24,000 nt of DNA from Kosakonia calanthes. GTDB lineage: Bacteria; Pseudomonadota; Gammaproteobacteria; Enterobacterales; Enterobacteriaceae. The position numbers and the translations under genes were made by a program. Position 1 is the stretch's first letter; each line of letters starts with the position of its first letter. Under the pieces are notes generated by a model that ran no database searches, was not told the origin of the DNA, and worked only from the letters and a program-made list of their open reading frames with translations. Of the stretch, positions 3,747 to 24,000 are shown piece after piece. The stretch lies in the NCBI RefSeq assembly GCF_038449125.1, contig NZ_CP151800.1:10406-34405 (forward strand), given 5' to 3'.

Positions 3747-3830
3747 TTGTGTCGGGTCGCCCTCGCGGCCCAATCCCAACATGCTCGCCGACAGGGAGCA
3801 TATGTGAGCCCGCGGGCTCGCAGGTATCAA

Positions 3831-3848
3831 CTCGCTTCTTAGAAGGAG
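3831..3848 (+). promoter_or_regulatory. ROSE-like SD-masking hairpin in the ibpA-ibpB spacer
   Basis: CTCgCT (3831-3836) pairs with AGGAG (3844-3848) with the same bulged G as the ibpA element and a 7-nt loop. The ibpB ATG is at 3856. Additional palindromes lie upstream, including GAGCCCGCGGGCTC. Confidence 0.5.
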
Positions 3849-3855
3849 AAACACC

Positions 3856-4284
3856 ATGCGTAACTATGATTTATCCCCACTTCTGCGCCAGTGGATTGGT
3901 TTTGACAAATTAGCCAACGCGCTGCAAAGCACCACCGAGCAACAGGCGTTCCCGCCCTACAACATTGAAAAGGGCGATGATAACCACTATCGCATTACCC
4001 TTGCGCTGGCGGGTTTCCGTCAGGAAGAGCTGGATATCCAGCTGGAGAACGGTCGCCTGACCATCAAAGGCACCCCGGAAAAACCGGCCAACGAACCGAA
4101 ATGGCTCCATCAAGGGCTGGTGATTCAGCCGTTCAGCCTGAGCTTTACGCTGGCGGATTTTATGGAAGTTTCTGGCGCAACCTTTACCAACGGCTTACTG
4201 CATATCGATTTGCTGCGTAACGTGCCGGAAAGCGCCGCGCCGCAGCGCATCGCCATCAGCGAACGCCCGGCGTTGAATAGCTAA
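3856..4284 (+). CDS. ibpB: Small heat-shock protein IbpB
   Basis: 142 aa: [24 protein letters not shown] ... [21 protein letters not shown]. It is the paralogue directly downstream of ibpA. Confidence 0.96.
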
Positions 4285-16025: not shown

Positions 16026-17114
16026 GTGCGAAAGCCATTGATTGCAGTTGTTATGTTGCTGGCGGGAACCGCTGTGTTTGCCGCCGAAACTCCGCTGACG
16101 GCGGCGCGTTACGCGCAACAGTTGGGGGTGGGAATGGATGTCGACTGGGCGCGTACCGATCGCGGTATTCGCGAGTTTGACCCGCTTATCGTGCGTGATT
16201 TTTACAACGCCGGGATTCGCCATGTGCGCATTCGCGTGGCCGATAACATGACCGAAGCGCGCTTGATCCACCTGCGAAAACTGGTGGAAGCCTGCGAAGA
16301 GTACGGCGTTATTCCGGTGATTGCTTACCAGGCGGATACTTTTAAAGCCGATCCCGATGCGAAAAACGAAGCGCAATTGGTGGCGTGGTGGTCGACGGTC
16401 GGACACTTTTTTGGCAGCGATCACCCGACGCTCGGTTTTGATGTGATTTATGAACCGGCCGACAAACTCAACCGCGATCTCCCGGCGCTCAATCGCGCCT
16501 ACGAAAATGTCGTCAGAACTCTGCATGATATTGATGCGCAGCGCATGATTTTTATCGCCCCGCGCCTGCGCGCCGCGCCGGAAGATCTCTCTTCGTTAAA
16601 ATTGCCGCCGCACAGCCAAAATTACCTGCTGGCGGAATGGCATATCTTCCCGTGGGGGCCGCTGAAAGCGAACGGTAAATACCCGTGGACATCCGGCACG
16701 GCGGCGGAAAGAGCGGCGATCCGCGCGCGCATTGCTACGGCGTTGCGCTGGCAGCAAAAATCCGGGCATGCCACCTGGGTTGGCGGCTGGGCGGTGGGCG
16801 AGTCGTTCAAAAGCGCGCCGACCGCGTCGCAAATGGCGTTCGCCCGCTTTATGGCCTGCGAGTTAAATAAGGCGAAAATCCCTTACGCCATTAATGCCGA
16901 TAGCCAATTTTATGATGGCGAAGAGGGCGCCTGGCGGCCTGCGCCGGAGCCTTTACTGCAAGAGATGATTGCGCCGACGTGCGAAAAACCCGACGCGAAG
17001 CCGGGTCATCATGAGCTTAAAGCGCCGGTTCGTGGCGAGCAAAGCGCGACGCCAACGGCAGCCAGCACAACACAATCAACAGCCCGGCCAGCGTCATCAG
17101 CATCCCAAGGCTAA
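16026..17114 (+). CDS. Secreted glycoside hydrolase family 5-like (cellulase superfamily) protein
   Basis: 362 aa with a GTG start, AAGG 6 nt upstream, and signal peptide MRKPLIAVVMLLAGTAVFA. There is a GH5-like acid/base motif (FDVIYEP) and a nucleophile region (WVGGWAVGES). The last 98 nt overlap emrD antisense. Confidence 0.7.
   Translation: MRKPLIAVVMLLAGTAVFAAETPLTAARYAQQLGVGMDVDWARTDRGIREFDPLIVRDFYNAGIRHVRIRVADNMTEARLIHLRKLVEACEEYGVIPVIAYQADTFKADPDAKNEAQLVAWWSTVGHFFGSDHPTLGFDVIYEPADKLNRDLPALNRAYENVVRTLHDIDAQRMIFIAPRLRAAPEDLSSLKLPPHSQNYLLAEWHIFPWGPLKANGKYPWTSGTAAERAAIRARIATALRWQQKSGHATWVGGWAVGESFKSAPTASQMAFARFMACELNKAKIPYAINADSQFYDGEEGAWRPAPEPLLQEMIAPTCEKPDAKPGHHELKAPVRGEQSATPTAASTTQSTARPASSASQG
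16984..17006 (-). terminator. Possible emrD terminator (weak)
   Basis: On the minus strand the sequence is ACCCG-loop-CGGGT followed by TTTTT, 10 nt after the emrD stop. The stem is only 5-6 bp. Confidence 0.35.
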
Positions 17115-18201
17115 ACTGGCTGTTCTGCGGCAACTGTGCCGACAGCCATGCCAGCCCGCCGGAACCCATATTTTGCAAGCCACCAATCAGCGCGCCTGCC
17201 GTTCCGGCTAAAAACGGAAACGGCTCCATCGCGCCGCTGGTCGCCAGCGGGAACAGCATCCCGGCACCGAAGAAAAACAGCGCAGCGGGCACTGTCAGCG
17301 TCCAGATATTCATTACGCCCATCATGCCGGGGATCCACATCAACACACCGGCCGCCAGGCAGCTGATCACCGCTTGCCACATCAGCGATGTGAAGCGCTT
17401 ATTCTGCCGTCCGGCAAACCACGCGCCGAAAAACGCGGCGGGGATGGGCAGGATAAACAGCACGCTTACTGTCAGGCTGTTCAGGCCGAGCACACCGCCC
17501 AGCAACACGCCGGAACAGGCTTCAAACACCGCAATTCCGGCCAGCCCGCCAATCAGCATCAGCAGATAACAGCTAAACGCGCCGTTGCCGAGCAGGGCTT
17601 TATAACTGGTGATCAGCCGCGTGCGCGGCGCGCCCTGTGGCCGCGTTTCCGGCATCCAGCGCGCCATGCTGTAAGCGACAATGGCGCACAACACCAGCAA
17701 AAACATAAAACAGGCACGCCAGTTCATCAGCGTATTCAGTACGCCGCCAATCAGCGGCGCCAGCAGCGGACTCACAAGAATACCCATGTTCAGCAGGCTG
17801 TTGGCGTGGCGCAGTGCGCTGCCTTCATAGAGATCGCGCGGCAGGGTGCGCGCCATCACGCCGCCAACGCCCGTGCCGACACCCTGAAGTGCGCTGGCAA
17901 AGATCAACACCGCCAGGCTGTGGGTGGTGATGGCAATAATGGTCGCCAGCATAAAAATCGCCATCCCGGCGAGGATCACCGGGCGGCGTCCTACGTGGTC
18001 TGCCAGCGGGCCATAAAAGAGCTGGGAGACGCCATATGTCAGTAAGTAAGCGGCCATTACGCCCTGCACTGCGCCTTTTGATACCGCCAGGTCGCGCGCC
18101 ATATCCGCAATGGCCGGGATATAGATGGTTTGCGCCATCTGCCCGACCGCGACCAGAAGCACCAGCATCAATAACAAATTGACGTTTCTCTGCTTTTTCA
18201 T
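17017..18201 (-). CDS. emrD: Multidrug efflux MFS transporter EmrD
   Basis: 394 aa: MK.QRNVNLLLMLVLLVAVGQMAQTIYIPAIADMARDL ... close to remembered EmrD over its full length. Confidence 0.95.
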   Translation of the reverse strand: MKKQRNVNLLLMLVLLVAVGQMAQTIYIPAIADMARDLAVSKGAVQGVMAAYLLTYGVSQLFYGPLADHVGRRPVILAGMAIFMLATIIAITTHSLAVLIFASALQGVGTGVGGVMARTLPRDLYEGSALRHANSLLNMGILVSPLLAPLIGGVLNTLMNWRACFMFLLVLCAIVAYSMARWMPETRPQGAPRTRLITSYKALLGNGAFSCYLLMLIGGLAGIAVFEACSGVLLGGVLGLNSLTVSVLFILPIPAAFFGAWFAGRQNKRFTSLMWQAVISCLAAGVLMWIPGMMGVMNIWTLTVPAALFFFGAGMLFPLATSGAMEPFPFLAGTAGALIGGLQNMGSGGLAWLSAQLPQNSQFSLGMLMTLAGLLIVLCWLPLASRFARHEPAL

Positions 18202-18378
18202 AGCGATGATTACTTTATAAAAAGTTGGTATTAAAGAATATATGGCTGCGATACAGTCTTAATGAAGGAGGAATCTACCACAGAGAGAGGGCAGAACCAC
18301 TACACCGGACGGCAATGGTCAGGTGGTGACAGGCAGGATTTGTAAACAATTATCGGCAACTTTTGTTGCCAGAATGCA

Positions 18379-19212
18379 TCACGCAAGCCGCAATAACATC
18401 GCCCCGGCGGCGATACCGCAAGCGGCCACAATGCGCAGGCCAGCGACTTTCTCTTTCAACAGCAGAAAAGCCAGCAGTGCGCCGAACAGAATCGAGGTTT
18501 CGCGCAGCGCCGCGACAACCGCCAGCGGCGCTTGCGTCATCGCCCACAGCGCCAGGCCGTAGGATCCCATGGTGCCAACGCCGCCCGGCAGCCCCTTTTT
18601 CCAGTTCGCCACCAGATAGCGCGTCACAACTTGTCGGCGTGTCAGCATCGCCCACAGCAAAAGGCAAAAGCCGTTAAGGAAAAACGTCCAAAGGGTGTAA
18701 CCCAACGCGGAACCGGCGAGGCGCACGCCAGTACCGTCGACCAGCGTATACCCGGCGATAAAACAGGAGTTCAGTAGCGCCAGCCAAATCCCTTTGCGCG
18801 ACTGGCTGCGCCCGTTAAAGGCCATACCGAGAATCGATACGCAGATCACGGCAATACCGCCCCACGCCAACGTGCTGAGGGAATCGCCCAGAATCAGCAC
18901 GCTGATTAATGCCACCAGCAGCGGCGCGGTGCCGCGCATTAGCGGGTAGGTTTGGCTCATGTCCGAGACTTGATACGTTTTGGCGACCAGCACGGTATAA
19001 ACCACCTGCAAAGCGCAACTGGCGGCCAGGTAAGGTGCGCTGGCAAGCGTGGGTTGGGGAGAAAAAGGCAATAAGATAAGCGCGATTAGCGCGGCGGAGC
19101 CACTTACGGCAATGGCGGAATAGAGCTTGTCGCTGCCCGCTTTGACAATCGCGTTCCAGCTGGCATGTAACAGCGCGGCGAACAGCAAAATACAAAAAAC
19201 AGAGAGGGTCAT
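18379..19212 (-). CDS. EamA/DMT-superfamily transporter
   Basis: The ORF is 18379..19251. The likely start is ATG 19212 (MTLSVFCILLFAALLHASWNAIVK). It shows a 10-TM, two-EamA-repeat pattern. The alternative start is 19251. Confidence 0.8.
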   Translation of the reverse strand: MTLSVFCILLFAALLHASWNAIVKAGSDKLYSAIAVSGSAALIALILLPFSPQPTLASAPYLAASCALQVVYTVLVAKTYQVSDMSQTYPLMRGTAPLLVALISVLILGDSLSTLAWGGIAVICVSILGMAFNGRSQSRKGIWLALLNSCFIAGYTLVDGTGVRLAGSALGYTLWTFFLNGFCLLLWAMLTRRQVVTRYLVANWKKGLPGGVGTMGSYGLALWAMTQAPLAVVAALRETSILFGALLAFLLLKEKVAGLRIVAACGIAAGAMLLRLA

Positions 19213-19284
19213 AGCGGCATGGGTGAGTGAATTGTCATCAAAATGTAACATCCTGGATGCCGGAAAAGCCAGAACGCCATTGTT

Positions 19285-19312
19285 AAAGAGGGGCGGTTTC
19301 CCGCCCCTCTTT
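19285..19312 (-). terminator. GC-rich symmetric hairpin terminating tisB
   Basis: AAAGAGGGGCGG (19285-19296), loop TTTC, then CCGCCCCTCTTT (19301-19312). It lies 20 nt downstream of the tisB stop on the minus strand. Confidence 0.75.
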
Positions 19313-19331
19313 GGTGCGACTTGAACCTGAA

Positions 19332-19421
19332 TTACCGCAGGTATTTCAGGACAGCTTCAAGCAGTTGCAACAAGGCAACAATGAGTTTCAGGATCAGGAT
19401 GACCAGTTCCATTTCGCCCAT
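19332..19421 (-). CDS. tisB: Type I toxin TisB (29-aa membrane peptide, SOS-induced)
   Basis: This gene is not in the ORF track. The minus-strand ATG at 19421 has GGAG (19428-19431) 6 nt upstream. The translation is MGEMELVILILKLIVALLQLLEAVLKYLR. Remembered E. coli TisB is MNLVDIAILILKLIVAALQLLDAVLKYLK. An in-frame ATG at 19427 abuts the SD and is less likely. Confidence 0.88.
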   Translation of the reverse strand: MGEMELVILILKLIVALLQLLEAVLKYLR

Positions 19422-19485
19422 ACGCATCTCCCGTGGTAAGGAGCACCGGCTGACGTACCTTTCCGCTGCCTGTTGCCAGCCTTGT

Positions 19486-19508
19486 TGTTGGCGTAACGCA
19501 GTGTGCTC
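19486..19508 (-). promoter_or_regulatory. IstR-1 pairing site in the tisAB mRNA leader
   Basis: The plus-strand sequence TGTTGGCGTAACGCAGTGTGCTC is repeated at 19724-19746 with one mismatch. An RNA made from the plus strand of the second copy is therefore complementary to the minus-strand tisAB leader here, 66-87 nt upstream of the tisB start. Confidence 0.75.
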
Positions 19509-19610
19509 TCGAGGGGTTAAGGCGCTGACGGCACCACCCGTTTCAGCCAGGACTTATTGCGCCGTAGAACGCGGCCCCTCACACAGATGCGCGAAGTCAG
19601 TATATGTTAA

Positions 19611-19630
19611 TACTGTTTATATATACAGTA
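19611..19630. promoter_or_regulatory. LexA (SOS) box between divergent tisAB and istR
   Basis: TACTGTTTATATATACAGTA is a full match to TACTGT-N8-ACAGTA (CTGT 19613-19616, ACAG 19625-19628). Confidence 0.9.
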
Positions 19631-19689
19631 ATTATTGGCGGTTTTTGCGACCTTGTACCATACTCAATGCGGGAAAATACGCTTGAAAA

Positions 19690-19718
19690 TTGCGCAATCA
19701 GAGGATTCAACGTATAGT
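19690..19718 (+). promoter_or_regulatory. Putative sigma70 promoter of istR-1
   Basis: TTGCGC (19690-19695), a 17-nt spacer, then TATAGT (19713-19718). This places +1 near 19725, at the start of the complementarity block. Confidence 0.55.
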
Positions 19719-19724
19719 TTCGCT

Positions 19725-19802
19725 GTTGACGTAACGCAGTGTGCTCACGGCCACCAACCGCGAAAGCCTGTGAAAAAAACCTCGCTTCAGTGCCCGCCAC
19801 TG
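19725..19802 (+). ncRNA. istR: IstR-1 antitoxin sRNA (3' end uncertain)
   Basis: The 5' 22 nt are trans-complementary to the tisAB leader and the locus is syntenic next to emrD. No canonical terminator is present. An A7 tract plus CCTCGC (19773-19785) lacks a complementary partner, so the RNA may instead end at the hairpin 19813-19848. Confidence 0.6.
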
Positions 19803-19812
19803 GACGACTTAA

Positions 19813-19848
19813 ATTAGCGGAGAATGTCAGAACATATTCTCCGCTAAT
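19813..19848. repeat. Perfect 13-bp inverted repeat / hairpin at the core-island transition
   Basis: ATTAGCGGAGAAT (19813-19825) and ATTCTCCGCTAAT (19836-19848) are separated by 10 nt. A related third copy, ATTCCGCTAAT, lies at 19877-19887. Confidence 0.7.
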
Positions 19849-20028
19849 ATTGAGATGCTAAATCTAATCCAATTTAATTCCGCTAATCTGTAAATATATT
19901 TCTGCTGTTTCGCAAACAGGACAAATTAATTTCTCAATAATTAGCTTCTTTTTTAGTTGAGTCGGTAATGCAACGCTTTGCTTACTTGAGTATTATTTTC
20001 GCCCTGTCATCATCATGTGATTTATTTT

Positions 20029-20429
20029 ATGGGCCTGAAATTTCAACCTAAAGTTGGTTCCATTGTTATTTGTGACTTTCGCGGTATGGTTGTGCCCGAA
20101 ATCGTTAAAAAAGGCCTGTCATTGTTGTTGCCAGGAGTCGCTGTAACAGCCAGCTTGTGACTGTGGTACCAATCAGTACAACCGCGCCAGATCCCGCCAA
20201 AGACTACCATCACGCGTTACGCCAAAACCCGATTCCGGGAAATGAGCATATTCCTTGCTGGGCAAAGTGCGACATGATTAATGTCGTTTCGCTCGAACGC
20301 CTCGACAGAATTAAAAATGCAGGATGGGGGCGAGATAATTATATTGTCCCGACAATTGAGCGAGACGAGCTTGAAATGATTAAGCATGGAATATTGCATG
20401 GGCTGGGTATGTCGTATCTAGTTTTATAA
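20029..20429 (+). pseudogene. PemK/MazF-like (YifN-like) toxin-fold gene split by a frameshift in an A6 tract
   Basis: ATG 20029 encodes MGLKFQPKVGSIVICDFRGMVVPEIVKK. The frame then changes at AAAAAA (20107-20112). The -1 frame continues as RPVIVVARSRCNSQLVTVVPISTTAPD...WAKCDMINVVSLERLDR... to stop 20429. One extra A would give a continuous 133-aa protein. Confidence 0.6.
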
Positions 20430-20483
20430 GTTATTCTTTAAATTATTACGGCTGCCTGTAATTATGAATGTACAGTGTTTTAC

Positions 20484-20511
20484 TTGACATAAAACTCTCA
20501 CCAGCTAATAT
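20484..20511 (+). promoter_or_regulatory. Strong sigma70-like promoter in intergenic island DNA
   Basis: TTGACA (20484-20489), a 16-nt spacer, then TAATAT (20506-20511). Confidence 0.5.
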
Positions 20512-20517
20512 TGCCGC

Positions 20518-20636
20518 TGTTCCCTTATGGGACTTGTAAGACTTCCAGAATACCGGAAGCCAGGCGCGACAAGATGGCGATGACAAGCCTGTCGCCCCCT
20601 GTGAAAAGGCACCTTTTTAGGTGCCTTTGTCTTTTC
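20518..20636 (+). ncRNA. Candidate sRNA of about 115 nt (promoter-to-terminator unit)
   Basis: It is bounded by the promoter above and the terminator at 20605-20636. Internal hairpins include CTTCCAG..CCGGAAG and GGCGA..TCGCC. There is no SD-preceded ORF that stops before the terminator. Confidence 0.35.
20605..20636. terminator. Bidirectional rho-independent terminator
   Basis: AAAGGCACC (20605-20613) pairs with GGTGCCTTT (20620-20628). The plus strand continues GTCTTTTCT and the minus strand continues TTTTCAC. It lies 6 nt after the stop of the minus-strand operon (20642). Confidence 0.8.
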
Positions 20637-20641
20637 TGCGT

Positions 20642-20905
20642 TTACAGCTTTTCGCAAATCGCCAGATTGATGCGCACGAATTCATCCCAGGGGATGATCG
20701 CGGCGAGGTTTTGCCGGTAATACTCTTCAACACGGCACACCAGCGGGCGCTGTTCGTAGATGCGGCACAAATGGCTGTCGTCATCGAAATGGCGGCATGC
20801 CCCGTCGCCGCGATCGAGAAACGCGGTTTCGGGGCTGGCGTTCACCCTGCGACAACATTTGCCGCAGGCGGTGCAAGGGAACGGCGTGAGTGGCGCATCA
20901 GGCAT
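20642..20905 (-). CDS. YkgJ/UPF0153-type cysteine-cluster (CxxCxxCC) protein
   Basis: 87 aa: MPDAPLTPFPCTACGKCCRRV...GDGACRHFDDDSHLCRIYEQRPLVCR. The start overlaps the stop of the upstream GTPase gene by 8 nt. Confidence 0.8.
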   Translation of the reverse strand: MPDAPLTPFPCTACGKCCRRVNASPETAFLDRGDGACRHFDDDSHLCRIYEQRPLVCRVEEYYRQNLAAIIPWDEFVRINLAICEKL

Positions 20906-22544
20906 CGGTGAGCCGGTCGGAAAGCCGCTGCGCCTGCGTCAGCGCGTCGCGGTTGGCCTGCATTTCGCTGTTTGCCACATCCAGCGTTGCCGTGACTTTC
21001 TGCGTCATTTCCGTAAACCACGGCGTGAGGATGTCGCGCACTTCGTCCGCCATCGCTTTCTCAAATTTAGCGGCAATATCGCGGGAAATGTCCTCGACTT
21101 CCTGCATAAAACGCTCGCGTTCGCGGGCATAGTGTTCAGACTGCTCGCGCAAGCGTTTTTCTTGCGGATCTTCAGCCACCATATCCCAAAGCGTGCTGAT
21201 CACCGTCACGGCAGTGCCGACGTAAGGGATCCATTTCCCGACCACCAACGTACCCCATTTTTCCATGGTTTTTGGGCCGATGCCTTTCATCACCGACGGC
21301 AGCCACTCTTTCACCAGCTTCAGCCCGGCCACCACATGCTCGGGTTTGGCGACGCTGCCCACCGTGCCAACGGCGCTTTTCACCGCATCGGCATTCACTT
21401 TATCCAGCAGACCTTTGTTGGCTGGCATTGTCTCATCGGTTCCCGGCTGGATGCCCTGTACTTGCACATTATTGTGATGGGGCGCGCCCGCCAGCGCAGT
21501 TTCCAGCGCCTGCACATCCTGCGCGAATTGGCTGCTCAGAAACGCGGTTTCGTCTGTCAGCACCCGGTTCACATTGTCGACCGCTTCATGGTAAATCGCG
21601 CCAATGGTTTGCTGGCAATGCTGCGGATCCTGCTGGAGCGCGGTTTTGCTGCGCGTTTGCAGTATCAAACGGTTACGCGCAATCTCTTTGTTCACTTCAC
21701 GCTGGCAGGCGGCCTGTGCGGCAAGGAGATTTTTCAGCAGCGTGTTGTACTGGCGCACCGCGTCGTCACCGCTGTTTTGCATCAACGAGGCGAGCAACGT
21801 GTCGAGGAAATCGTGCAGCGAGTGCGCAAGTTGCTTGCTGATGTCGTCCGGCGTAATGCTGTCGATAAAGCCGGTCAACGCCGTTTCGAACGCCGGGTAG
21901 CCGCTGTATTCAATAAGGCCTGGCTTTTGGCGCAGCTTGCCATCCAGCGCGCGTTGCGCGTTGACACGCCAAATGGGAATGTCGGCTAAAACCGCGTCCA
22001 TTCCTTTCGCAGCGGCAAGCTCTTGCAGGCGCATCCGCGTGCTGTTCTTCAGCCGGGTAAACAGCTCAACGGAAAAGTCCTCTTTTTCATTGAACACCAG
22101 AAACAGCTTTTTGCCCTGCGCCAGCAGGTCAATCATCACCTGCAACGTTTTCATCTCTTCCGCCGCGCCGGAAGGGTTTACAACGAAAACAATGGCATCC
22201 ACGTTGAGCATCTGCTGTTGTGTCACTTTTTCGTGATCCAGCGGCGCATCCACGCCGGGCGTATCCAGAATGGCATACTGCCCCCAGCGGTATTCGTCCA
22301 CGCGATCGGTCAGCGGAAAATCGCCCGTCGGTGCCGTTTCCGCGCCCAGCAGGGCGTTAATCAGCGTGCTTTTACCGGCGTTATACACGCCGTAAACCAT
22401 AATGCTCGCATCGGGTTTACGCATTTTCTCTGCAAACCTGGCCGCTACCGGGCGAAACGCGGGTTCCAGCGCGGGATAGTGGCGCACAAAGGCTTCAGTG
22501 TCGTGATAAATGCGATAAAGATCGTTTAAGGAAAGCGTCATCAC
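20898..22544 (-). CDS. Bacterial dynamin-like GTPase (LeoA/BDLP-like), 548 aa
   Basis: Motifs are G1 GVYNAGKST (nt 22365-22391), G3 DTPG and G4-like FNEKED. There is a long predicted helical stalk and a C-terminal hydrophobic segment WGTLVVGKWIPYVGTAVTVISTLW. It has an ATGA overlap with the upstream gene. Confidence 0.8.
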   Translation of the reverse strand: MMTLSLNDLYRIYHDTEAFVRHYPALEPAFRPVAARFAEKMRKPDASIMVYGVYNAGKSTLINALLGAETAPTGDFPLTDRVDEYRWGQYAILDTPGVDAPLDHEKVTQQQMLNVDAIVFVVNPSGAAEEMKTLQVMIDLLAQGKKLFLVFNEKEDFSVELFTRLKNSTRMRLQELAAAKGMDAVLADIPIWRVNAQRALDGKLRQKPGLIEYSGYPAFETALTGFIDSITPDDISKQLAHSLHDFLDTLLASLMQNSGDDAVRQYNTLLKNLLAAQAACQREVNKEIARNRLILQTRSKTALQQDPQHCQQTIGAIYHEAVDNVNRVLTDETAFLSSQFAQDVQALETALAGAPHHNNVQVQGIQPGTDETMPANKGLLDKVNADAVKSAVGTVGSVAKPEHVVAGLKLVKEWLPSVMKGIGPKTMEKWGTLVVGKWIPYVGTAVTVISTLWDMVAEDPQEKRLREQSEHYARERERFMQEVEDISRDIAAKFEKAMADEVRDILTPWFTEMTQKVTATLDVANSEMQANRDALTQAQRLSDRLTDA

Positions 22545-24000
22545 TGGTTTTCCTGGTGCAGAATCCGCTGGGTTTCCAGCAAAAGATGTTCAATAGCGAG
22601 GCTCATCGTCGCGACTTCACGTTTAAGCGCGTCGGTCAGCGCCTCGCTCTCGGTTAACAACTGCGTGGTAAGTTGGTCGGCAAGCGCGCGAATGGCGCTG
22701 GCGACAGACGCGCAATAGCGCTCAATGGCCTGCGCCTGGATTGCGCTCAGGTTGTCGCCCACCGTCAATTCAATGGTGCGCGTCCCCATTCTGGGGCCGG
22801 TGCTGAGCGCACCGCCCGCACCGCCGCCAATCGTCATCCCTACCGCCGCGCCCGCCGGGCCGCCTAACGCAAAACCGAGGGCTGCGCCGGCAAGTGCCCC
22901 CAGCCCGCTGTTGCGTTTGCGGTTGCCTTTTACGACTTCACCGGGGATCTCTTCGGTGATTTTCTCTAAAGAGAAGTTCGGCAGCGTCAGCGTCGAGGCC
23001 TGCCAGCTATCGCTCATCGCGGTTTTAAACTCGCGCGTAATGTCGCGAAACAGCTCGGCGATGGCCTCCACCACCACCTCTTGATGCACCGTGTCCCACC
23101 GTGTGCGCGCCTGGCGAAGTTGGCTGTTGATGGCGGATTCGTCATCCCGCAGCGCCAGCAGCGCATCAAACGTGTCGTCGACACTCGCCCGCATGCGCGA
23201 TTGTGCGTGACGAACTTGCCGGATAATGGTCTGCGCCAATGTACGCTGCAACTTTTTAAACGTCTCACCAAACAGGGCAATTTGCTGGTGATACGGCGCC
23301 AGATCGTCGATGCAAACAGTCAGGAATTTATGGAAATTATTCAGCGGCACATGGCGTTTGATGCGCACTCCCTCGGCGTGCGACAGCGTGTGCAGAGTGG
23401 CAAACAACTGCGCCATGCCGCTCTCTGCCATGTGCTGTTCGTCGTCGAAGAAACGCTGAGCAACCTGCGCCGAAATTGAAATAATTTCGACGTTTTCGCG
23501 CGCAATGCCGTCCGCATTAAGCTCTTTCGCGACATAGTCCCTTTGCGCCAGCCGGGTAGGCGCAGGCTTCATCATTTTGCCTTTGATTACCATCCGGTCG
23601 TTTTCGTCGTCCCAGTCCTCGTCAGGCGTGTCGCTGCCGGTGATTAACAGTAGCGTCTGCTTTTTCTGATCGAGTAGCTGGCGAATCTCCTGCAAATCGC
23701 TGGCGCGTCCGGGCGCACTGGAACTCATGGTGTAGAGGATCAGATCGGCATGCTGGACGTATTCCTGCGCCAATTCGCCGTTGCACTGTTTCACCGAATG
23801 CAGGCCGGGAGAGTCCACCCACGTCAGGCCGGGCAGACGAAAGCCCTGAATCGAGCTGGTGGCTTCGGTGCCATCAACGCGAAATTGCTGGTTTTGCTCC
23901 GCTTCGCGCGGCGCGTCGCCATTTTCCGCCTCGGTGTTTTCATGGGAAAACCAGGCCGGATGTTGGTTGGCAGGCAGGCTATCTTTGGTTTGTTGCGTCG
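22541..24000 (-). CDS. Bacterial dynamin-like GTPase, 5' end beyond the window
   Basis: The frame stays open to nt 24000; the track start at 23818 is only an internal GTG. Visible features are G3 VDSPG, LLITGSD, a long helical region, and a glycine-zipper hydrophobic segment NSGLGALAGAALGFALGGPAGAAVGMTIGGGAGG (nt 22793-22912). The P-loop is not in the window. Confidence 0.75.
   Translation of the reverse strand, partial: TQQTKDSLPANQHPAWFSHENTEAENGDAPREAEQNQQFRVDGTEATSSIQGFRLPGLTWVDSPGLHSVKQCNGELAQEYVQHADLILYTMSSSAPGRASDLQEIRQLLDQKKQTLLLITGSDTPDEDWDDENDRMVIKGKMMKPAPTRLAQRDYVAKELNADGIARENVEIISISAQVAQRFFDDEQHMAESGMAQLFATLHTLSHAEGVRIKRHVPLNNFHKFLTVCIDDLAPYHQQIALFGETFKKLQRTLAQTIIRQVRHAQSRMRASVDDTFDALLALRDDESAINSQLRQARTRWDTVHQEVVVEAIAELFRDITREFKTAMSDSWQASTLTLPNFSLEKITEEIPGEVVKGNRKRNSGLGALAGAALGFALGGPAGAAVGMTIGGGAGGALSTGPRMGTRTIELTVGDNLSAIQAQAIERYCASVASAIRALADQLTTQLLTESEALTDALKREVATMSLAIEHLLLETQRILHQENQ

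Follow-up and report, generated by a model that had tools for sequence, protein, structure and literature searches.

Dynamin-like GTPase genes followed by a CxxCxxCC protein gene in Kosakonia calanthes: a candidate relative of the Eleos anti-phage system

The operon and its upstream genes

The last part of a 24,000 bp stretch of the Kosakonia calanthes genome (contig NZ_CP151800.1, positions 10,406 to 34,405; hereafter the window) carries three minus-strand genes, at 20642-24000, that encode two dynamin-like GTPases (DynA and DynB) and a small cysteine-rich protein (Cys). The three coupled open reading frames (ORFs) lie where the original prediction, made from the sequence alone, had placed them. 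The genes, their junctions and the terminator are as follows:

22541..24000, minus strand: dynA, the 3' 80% of a dynamin-like GTPase gene of approximately 609 aa (translation, Pfam, PADLOC, contig L012)
20898..22544, minus strand: dynB, dynamin-like GTPase, 548 aa from GTG or 547 aa from ATG (ORF list, Pfam, PADLOC)
20642..20905, minus strand: cys, 87-aa CxxCxxCC protein, last gene of the operon (Pfam PF03692)
22541..22544, minus strand: overlap of dynA stop and dynB start, GTGA with the GTG start or TGATG with the ATG start (22541-22539)
20905-20898, minus strand: overlap of dynB stop and cys start, 8 nt, ATGCCTGA (exact in the sequence)
20605..20628, no strand assigned: hairpin terminator right after cys, 10-bp stem (terminator scan)

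The dynA fragment comprises 485 codons (23998 to 22544) followed by a stop codon at 22541-22543. As had been noted, this gene runs off the window: its 5' end, and with it the P-loop and N-terminus of the protein, lies beyond the edge. The fragment carries the sequence WVDSPGLHS (with the G3 motif DSPG), the G4 motif TGSD, a long helical stalk region and a glycine-rich, hydrophobic glycine zipper, putatively a membrane segment, of approximately 40 residues (SGLGALAGAALGFALGGPAGAAVGMTIGGGA, fragment residues 364-394, mean Kyte-Doolittle value 1.5). DynB contains the P-loop GVYNAGKST, the G3 motif LDTPG and the G4 motif NEK, followed by a helical stalk. The putative C-terminal paddle that had been noted corresponds to a conserved hydrophobic region spanning approximately residues 400-457, with a hydrophobic hairpin (WGTLVVGKWIPYVGTAVTVISTLWDMVA) at residues 430-457.

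Both gene junctions overlap. The 8 nt overlap of dynB and cys is exactly as first described, but the dynA-dynB junction, originally given as ATGA, reads GTGA. Two dynB start codons are available: a GTG with a 4 nt overlap, or the ATG at 22541-22539 that shares one base with the dynA stop codon. A 99%-identical DynB in the database is recorded with the ATG start and a length of 547 aa. The terminator had been called bidirectional. The hairpin is real, but passes the terminator rule on the plus strand only and is followed by just TTTT on the side of the operon strand; bidirectional action is plausible, one half of it being borne out.

Sequence comparison shows that the window holds the last three genes (the 3' half) of a larger accessory operon of Kosakonia. 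A search of one genome per species identified eleven loci with a relative of DynB at 31-59% identity, in Aeromonas, Buttiauxella, Lelliottia, Pseudescherichia, Silvania, Huaxiibacter, Shewanella, Simplicispira, Acidovorax, Tepidiphilus and a Methylophilaceae metagenome-assembled genome. All ten untruncated loci have two extra genes 5' of dynA-dynB. The first encodes a short GTPase of 270-290 aa (Pfam MMR_HSR1 and Dynamin_N; PADLOC LeoA, E-value: 5.8e-21), and the second encodes an anchor protein of 170-200 aa with an N-terminal membrane helix (MALPWLIG), an acidic linker and a charged coiled coil. The conserved core order is short dynamin-related GTPase (G, approximately 275 aa), anchored coiled-coil protein (TM), DynA, DynB and Cys. 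This five-gene core was counted in L001-L011, L162, L164 and approximately 25 metagenome loci; loci of Wohlfahrtiimonas and Vibrio metschnikovii have the same gene set. Several of the related operons are headed by a regulator with helix-turn-helix (HTH), WYL and WCX domains. With a third GTPase, an anchored coiled-coil protein and often a WYL regulator upstream, the three-component machine that was originally proposed is too small.

Window positions 19711-24000 have a counterpart in Logan contig L012 (98.5% nucleotide identity), which extends 708 nt farther upstream. It yields the full 609-aa DynA, including an N-terminus with the P-loop GKVKSGKS, and the last 111 residues of an anchor protein (36% identical to that of Buttiauxella). 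As L012 carries both the N-terminus of DynA and the C-terminus of the anchor protein, the Kosakonia lineage has upstream genes too.

Relatedness of the GTPases to known dynamin-like proteins

Both large genes encode dynamin-like GTPases by profile, and DynB also does so by fold. Recovery of a dynamin-family fold had been set beforehand as a test of the original prediction, and the searches gave it. With Pfam Dynamin_N, the DynA fragment scored 41.2 bits and DynB 51.7 bits (cut-off 27); DynB also matched MMR_HSR1 (52.5 bits). With the PADLOC profiles, the DynA fragment matched LeoA (E-value: 3.7e-19) and LeoBC (3.6e-14), and DynB matched LeoA nearly end to end (residues 41-535, 6.7e-34) and LeoBC (1.2e-27). 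The full-length DynA of locus L002 matched LeoBC over residues 22-594 (2.6e-15). Among 30 homologues of DynB, residues GVYNAGKST, T79, DTPG and N152/K154 are invariant, as is the DynA P-loop, read only from L012, among 16 homologues. The short GTPase of the core likewise has intact motifs.

An AlphaFold2 (AF2) model of DynB, built on the 30 homologues, had a predicted local distance difference test score (pLDDT) of 70. Long helices at residues 232-353 and 460-547 form a helical neck or trunk after the G domain, and the paddle region is disordered (pLDDT < 50). Membrane-type hydrophobic segments are predicted from the sequence at the expected positions in DynB and in the DynA fragment. When the DynB model was compared with the Protein Data Bank (PDB) using Foldseek, the best matches were IniA (2.9e-9), LeoA (1.3e-8) and BDLP (8e-8). 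Cj-DLP1/2, SynDLP and mitofusins were also matched, the E-values of the whole set running from 3e-9 to 1e-5; the matches to IniA, LeoA, BDLP, Cj-DLP and mitofusin span the full length. A PDB sequence search with DynB gave matches to G domains only (Der, Era and Cj-DLP).

DynB thus resembles in overall fold the LeoABC proteins of enterotoxigenic Escherichia coli (ETEC), Campylobacter Cj-DLP1/2, Nostoc BDLP and Mycobacterium IniA (Foldseek E-values 3e-9 to 6e-7, probability 1.0), and Cj-DLP1/2 and LeoABC are likewise encoded by paired genes. The solved bacterial dynamin-like proteins are nevertheless only 11-16% identical to DynB, with TM-scores of 0.25-0.31; such low scores are expected because these are hinged proteins compared with a model whose paddle is disordered. 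Unlike the operon described here, these four systems are without a described cysteine-cluster partner. The statement in the original prediction that no described dynamin system is known to have a fixed metal or redox Cys-cluster partner agrees with the searchable literature, in which no link between dynamins and CxxCxxCC or YkgJ proteins was found.

Tandem dynamin-like defence genes are already known. One such pair, a dynamin-like system of two genes from Bacillus vietnamensis, confers phage protection on B. subtilis (Millman et al., bioRxiv 10.1101/2022.05.11.491447). This system, formerly called "Dynamins", is now named Eleos and is defined as two genes, LeoA and LeoBC (bioRxiv 10.1101/2022.12.12.520048). 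Like Eleos, the operon has GTPase genes side by side whose dynamin-like products are matched by the LeoA and LeoBC profiles of PADLOC over almost their whole length, although both score far below the cut-off of the NCBIfam LeoA model; it is also accessory and found among defence genes. Unlike Eleos, it has a core of five genes rather than two, with an extra short GTPase, an anchored coiled-coil protein and the CxxCxxCC protein, often in addition to a WYL regulator. A further possible parallel in action is B. subtilis DynA, which keeps the membrane intact and postpones lysis by phages (PMC8844932).

The Cys protein and the operons that it terminates

The identification of the 87-aa product of cys as a CxxCxxCC protein is confirmed by Pfam PF03692 (34.9 bits, cut-off 23). 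Its beginning reads FPCTACGKCC, and eight cysteines are invariant or nearly so in 28 homologues: C11, C17, C18, C37, C47, C57 and C84 are invariant and C14 is present in at least 90%. The conserved CxxCxxCC motif is C11-x2-C14-x2-C17-C18. Cys is 100% identical to a protein of Kosakonia sp. BYX6 that carries the NCBI name "YkgJ family"; it falls outside the YcgN family, its best NCBIfam score being 22.9 bits against a cut-off of 170. In the Cys protein of L012 (approximately 3811-4070 of the contig), the otherwise invariant Gly15 is replaced by Ser (CTACSKCC in place of CTACGKCC; window equivalent 20860-20862).

Cys shares an N-terminal cysteine-rich motif of the CxxCxxCC type, and a set of eight conserved cysteines, with other PF03692 proteins: the flagellin lysine methyltransferase FliB, YkgJ and YcgN. 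In FliB, where the spacing is CX4CX3CC, the motif is part of a far larger enzyme, while Cys comprises little beyond the putative metal-binding domain. The FliB motif binds a [4Fe-4S] cluster that is sensitive to oxygen (PMC8598068). Because this related motif holds a cluster, Cys probably binds metal as well, either as an Fe-S cluster or as zinc. A search for domain fusions found 572 representative clusters of the Cys subfamily, nearly all of them stand-alone proteins of 80-130 aa. Four rare longer forms (P0311, P0322, P0333 and P0368) carry extra C-terminal regions: that of P0311 has a sub-threshold match to TerB (E-value: 4.7e-4), that of P0333 looks GIY-YIG-like by eye, which is unconfirmed, and P0322 and P0368 have an unnamed domain in common.

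The association of cys with dynB that the original prediction anticipated is upheld by comparison of loci. In 10 of the 12 DynB-seeded loci with downstream sequence, cys directly follows dynB. Cys is the best conserved protein in every locus (54-76% identity to the window protein, compared to 41-59% for DynB and 42-55% for DynA), exceeding the GTPases by 13-25 points. In all 30 dynamin-type loci, drawn from unrelated genomes and metagenomes, the FPC motif begins no more than 40 nt from the dynB stop codon. A candidate cys start overlaps this stop codon in 27 of them, usually by 1, 4 or 8 nt, and in the remaining three the nearest start is no more than 5 nt past it. Because the cys start overlaps or abuts the dynB stop in every one of these loci, the arrangement is far beyond chance, and the sequence evidence for co-conservation and coupling of the two genes is solid.

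A small zinc-ribbon gene of approximately 65-71 aa (CxxC...CPxCG), absent from the window, was identified at L009 9718-9927, L011 9637-9846, L006 9913-10107 and L001 10120-10335, as well as in L040, L047, L063, L083 and L086. In some loci it follows cys, in both dynamin-type and PDC-M09-type operons (see below).

As judged by sequence comparison, Cys is not dynamin-specific, because most of its close homologues end operons without any GTPase. In Actinobacillus and Neisseria, close homologues terminate operons that encode a WYL regulator, a protein of 320-337 aa that combines a membrane helix at its N-terminus with a long glycine zipper, and a further protein that is small and helical. These partners match the PADLOC candidate system PDC-M09 (PDC-M09A, 8.6e-27; PDC-M09B, 2.1e-23). 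A metagenome scan seeded with the Cys alignment returned 80 loci at 41-71% identity, 74 of which had at least 900 nt of upstream DNA. These 74 comprised 25 dynamin-type, 42 PDC-M09-like, three AAA-type and four other loci. In 38 of 44 PDC-M09-type loci the FPC motif lies no more than 40 nt from the upstream stop codon, mostly with an overlapping candidate start. The third operon type encodes an AAA+ ATPase (Pfam AAA, 4.9e-27), an anchored MxLP-like protein of 117-125 aa, a protein of 132 aa and a polytopic membrane protein. This type, and a distant GTPase cluster of Klebsiella plasmids, were located as follows:

L017 441-2966, L018 3245-5770 and L051 32-2902: third operon type ending in Cys
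L167 (Klebsiella pneumoniae plasmid NZ_CP060424.1) 3829-8632: cluster of GTPase, small anchored protein, dynamin and GTPase, approximately 29% identity

The L167-type four-gene cluster was found on 23 Klebsiella plasmids; the inspected example is flanked by IS elements, and its anchor sequence is MWWLLIPVVGAV instead of MxLP. A fourth arrangement occurs at L052 3191-5658, where an anchored small P-loop protein (MIPLLIGG...GTTQTGKT), a glycine-rich protein of 224 aa and a protein of 274 aa precede cys and a WYL gene lies upstream. The PDC-M09B-like and PDC-M09A-like genes of a Cys-ending operon in Neisseria animalis (L014 2648-5828) are separated by an IS1595 transposase and a restriction-modification pair of the EcoRV type, which look like an insertion into that operon.

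The first 25 residues of the PDC-M09A-like proteins align with the anchor protein of the dynamin-type operons (hhalign probability 93%, E-value: 2.7e-7), and nothing else is common to the two. The anchor motif, M-(A/P)-(L/I)-P-(W/F/L)-x-(I/L)-G (MxLPxxIG), was found in all three operon types. The possibility that PDC-M09A-type proteins are dynamin stalks without a GTPase domain was rejected (hhalign probability against DynA, 7.6%). Because the anchors align while DynA and PDC-M09A do not, the operon types have in common the Cys protein, the anchor and often a WYL regulator, and differ in their effectors.

The PDC-M09-like operons are thus sisters of the Kosakonia operon in having the same Cys protein, the same type of WYL regulator and the same N-terminal MxLP anchor. 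The three window proteins, in contrast, match neither PDC-M09A nor PDC-M09B, and PDC-M09 is modelled with two genes, without a cys gene, and has candidate status only. This suggests that the PADLOC definition of PDC-M09 is incomplete. PDC-M09 is not mentioned in the searchable literature, nor were the five-gene core, the coupled CxxCxxCC subunit or the sharing of that subunit with PDC-M09-like and AAA-type operons via the anchor found there. There is a reasonable chance that the operon marks a broader modular family.

Distribution and possible role of the operon

The cluster is accessory and sporadic, not core, and its hosts are mostly environmental bacteria. One 99% copy aside, its nearest relatives are no more than 63% identical and are scattered over the Gamma- and Betaproteobacteria; no close DNA match was found among 5,426 E. 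coli genomes. A gene for a 220-aa protein with an invariant LYTLRNQxxHGG sequence (HEPN-type Rx4H) lies after or near cys in 17 loci of both the dynamin and PDC-M09 types:

L013 8333-8998, L001 10444-11118 and 15 further loci: HEPN-motif gene

Neither Pfam nor NCBIfam recognises this protein above threshold, and searches of both likewise left the anchor protein, the zinc ribbon and the PDC-M09-like proteins without a name. Other genes flanking related operons encode an AriA/HEC-01A-like ATPase, RhuM/PDC-S05, a NERD-UvrD helicase, PDC-S08, ArdC, DarT with NADAR, GmrSD, ParE, Fic, VapBC and transposases.

The Cys subfamily is present on 42 plasmids, 25 of them from Klebsiella. An inspected Klebsiella IncF plasmid carries a cluster of WYL, hypothetical, hypothetical and YkgJ genes; public annotation labels the partner genes "hypothetical". 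A cluster of the same description, accessory and present in approximately 6% of the pangenome, appears without comment in a comparative study of H. influenzae (PMC11932112). The subfamily was found on no phage record, and phage carriage was ruled out, as viral contigs hold only distant PF03692 relatives (<50% identity).

WYL regulators act in defence operons, for example BrxR in BREX and CapW in CBASS. Many relatives of the operon resemble these systems in being headed by an HTH-WYL-WCX regulator, although no regulator is visible inside the window. Taken together with the relationship to LeoA and LeoBC, these features incline us to a role in defence or conflict, and we lean, by analogy, towards the operon being an extended relative of the Eleos (LeoA/LeoBC) dynamin anti-phage system with a modular, probably metal-binding subunit. 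In such a system, the WYL protein would repress the operon and release it on a signal of infection or damage. The three GTPases would then assemble at the inner membrane via the anchor, glycine zipper and paddle and, driven by GTP, would reshape, seal or breach it, thereby limiting phage spread. Cys would bind an Fe-S cluster or zinc and serve as a stoichiometric regulatory or sensing subunit. Because it is slow-evolving and common to unrelated effectors, its target would more likely be something that the operons share, be it the MxLP anchor, the membrane or a physico-chemical cue, than the dynamins or phage proteins, a specific role that we put forward only tentatively. A more speculative extension, which we consider possible but doubtful, is that Cys, the MxLPxxIG anchor and often a WYL regulator define a widespread but so far unrecognised superfamily of conflict systems that are modular and target membranes. 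In these, the metal-cluster subunit would detect a shared cue or license assembly at the anchor; the three-GTPase set, the PDC-M09-type set and the AAA+ set would be swappable effectors, and the zinc-ribbon and HEPN-motif proteins would be optional.

A number of observations weigh against an Eleos-like defence system with a metal-binding subunit. First, support for a defence role comes from homology and neighbourhood, and the flanking genes above were hand-picked rather than sampled systematically. Second, the sequence relationship to Eleos is remote: the two GTPases score 29.4 and 26.9 bits with the NCBIfam LeoA/HP0731 model (cut-off 325), so that DynA and DynB are distant relatives of LeoA and of the system tested with phages. 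Third, the upstream genes and any regulator of the Kosakonia operon lie outside the window, and, among loci with sufficient upstream sequence, a WYL gene turned up in the 3 kb ahead of the operon in 10 of 23 of the dynamin type and 11 of 18 of the PDC-M09 type, counts that are lower bounds obtained with three queries. Fourth, metal binding by Cys is argued from analogy; its AF2 model, moderately confident at a pLDDT of 74, gave nothing with an E-value below 5 in a Foldseek search of the PDB, and the Cys profile had no PDB match by sequence. Fifth, rapid evolution would be expected of a protein that senses phage proteins, while cys is the slowest-evolving gene of the operon. Sixth, a zinc-ribbon gene of approximately 69 aa (CxxC...CxxC) takes the place of cys in L009 and L011, and the inspected Klebsiella plasmid GTPase cluster has neither gene; judging from these loci, Cys is not strictly required by such a GTPase machine. 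Finally, the G+C content of the operon (56-60%) equals that of the flanking core genes and leaves no compositional trace of recent import. The accessory island of the original prediction therefore stands with respect to sporadic, non-core distribution but not with respect to composition.

An alternative that we regard as unlikely is that the operon is a membrane-stress or repair module in which the GTPases patch or remodel damaged inner membrane, in the manner of B. subtilis DynA and mycobacterial IniA, and Cys reports redox or iron stress. IniA and BDLP are among the best structural matches of DynB, B. subtilis DynA functions in general membrane surveillance besides its effect on phages (PMC8844932), the Fe-S analogy with FliB would fit a redox cue, and emrD and the tisB region are neighbours of the operon. 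Repair systems of the DynA kind, however, are core genes of their hosts, while this operon is sporadic, is carried on plasmids and has defence-island neighbours, with a HEPN-motif gene at some loci and sister operons that match a PADLOC defence candidate.

Less probable still is a toxin-antitoxin-like or abortive-infection pair, in which the membrane proteins are toxic, forming pores or lesions, and Cys is an antidote or assembly chaperone produced in fixed ratio. Such a pair would account for cys being always last, with its start overlapping or abutting the stop codon of whichever membrane-protein gene precedes it, and for the glycine-zipper segments of DynA and the PDC-M09A-like proteins; a PDC-M09A-like protein also weakly matches the alpha-xenorhabdolysin pore-forming toxin family (E-value: 0.005, below the cut-off). 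It would require one 70%-identical antidote to serve unrelated partners (a 550-aa GTPase, a 136-aa helical protein and proteins of 320 and 600 aa), although DynA and PDC-M09A show no homology and some operons have a zinc ribbon instead of Cys, or neither. We regard a role in secretion or vesicle release, on the model of ETEC LeoABC and with Cys as an unrelated passenger gene, as very improbable: such a role would fit the homology to LeoA and LeoBC and the first link of LeoABC to virulence (as cited in bioRxiv 10.1101/2022.05.11.491447), but the gene set is conserved without a secreted cargo gene, the hosts are mostly environmental, and the start position, order and sequence of cys are kept across dozens of distant loci, as would not be expected of a passenger.

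The tested Eleos system offers few handles, and the variant described here adds a third GTPase, a membrane anchor and a cysteine-cluster protein as testable parts. Since Cys recurs with unrelated membrane effectors, it provides an entry point for genetics and spectroscopy. If Cys were an Fe-S or zinc switch over membrane effectors, it would represent a new type of control element in bacterial immunity and would give a function to one branch of the large, uncharacterised PF03692 family.

The remaining features near the operon are as follows:

17017-18201: emrD (together with the tisB region, 17017-19640, approximately 78% identical to E. coli)
18379-19251: DUF6/EamA-type membrane protein, 290 aa (NCBIfam TIGR03340, below the cut-off)
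20017-20429, plus strand: PemK/MazF-family toxin gene, frameshifted (two ORFs, 47 aa and 90 aa)

The original prediction placed the operon beside tisB/istR. The tisB/emrD region does adjoin it, but a search of 19000-24000 with Rfam at gathering thresholds found no RNA family, leaving istR unconfirmed by that route. The 290-aa DUF6/EamA-type gene sits between emrD and tisB in a stretch without E. coli alignment coverage. Two features fall within the AT-rich stretch at 19500-20500: the end of the tisB region and the frameshifted PemK/MazF gene, which is the decayed toxin gene noted previously. The larger piece of this gene is 38-45% identical to annotated plasmid PemK/MazF toxins, and the gene converges on the operon terminator.

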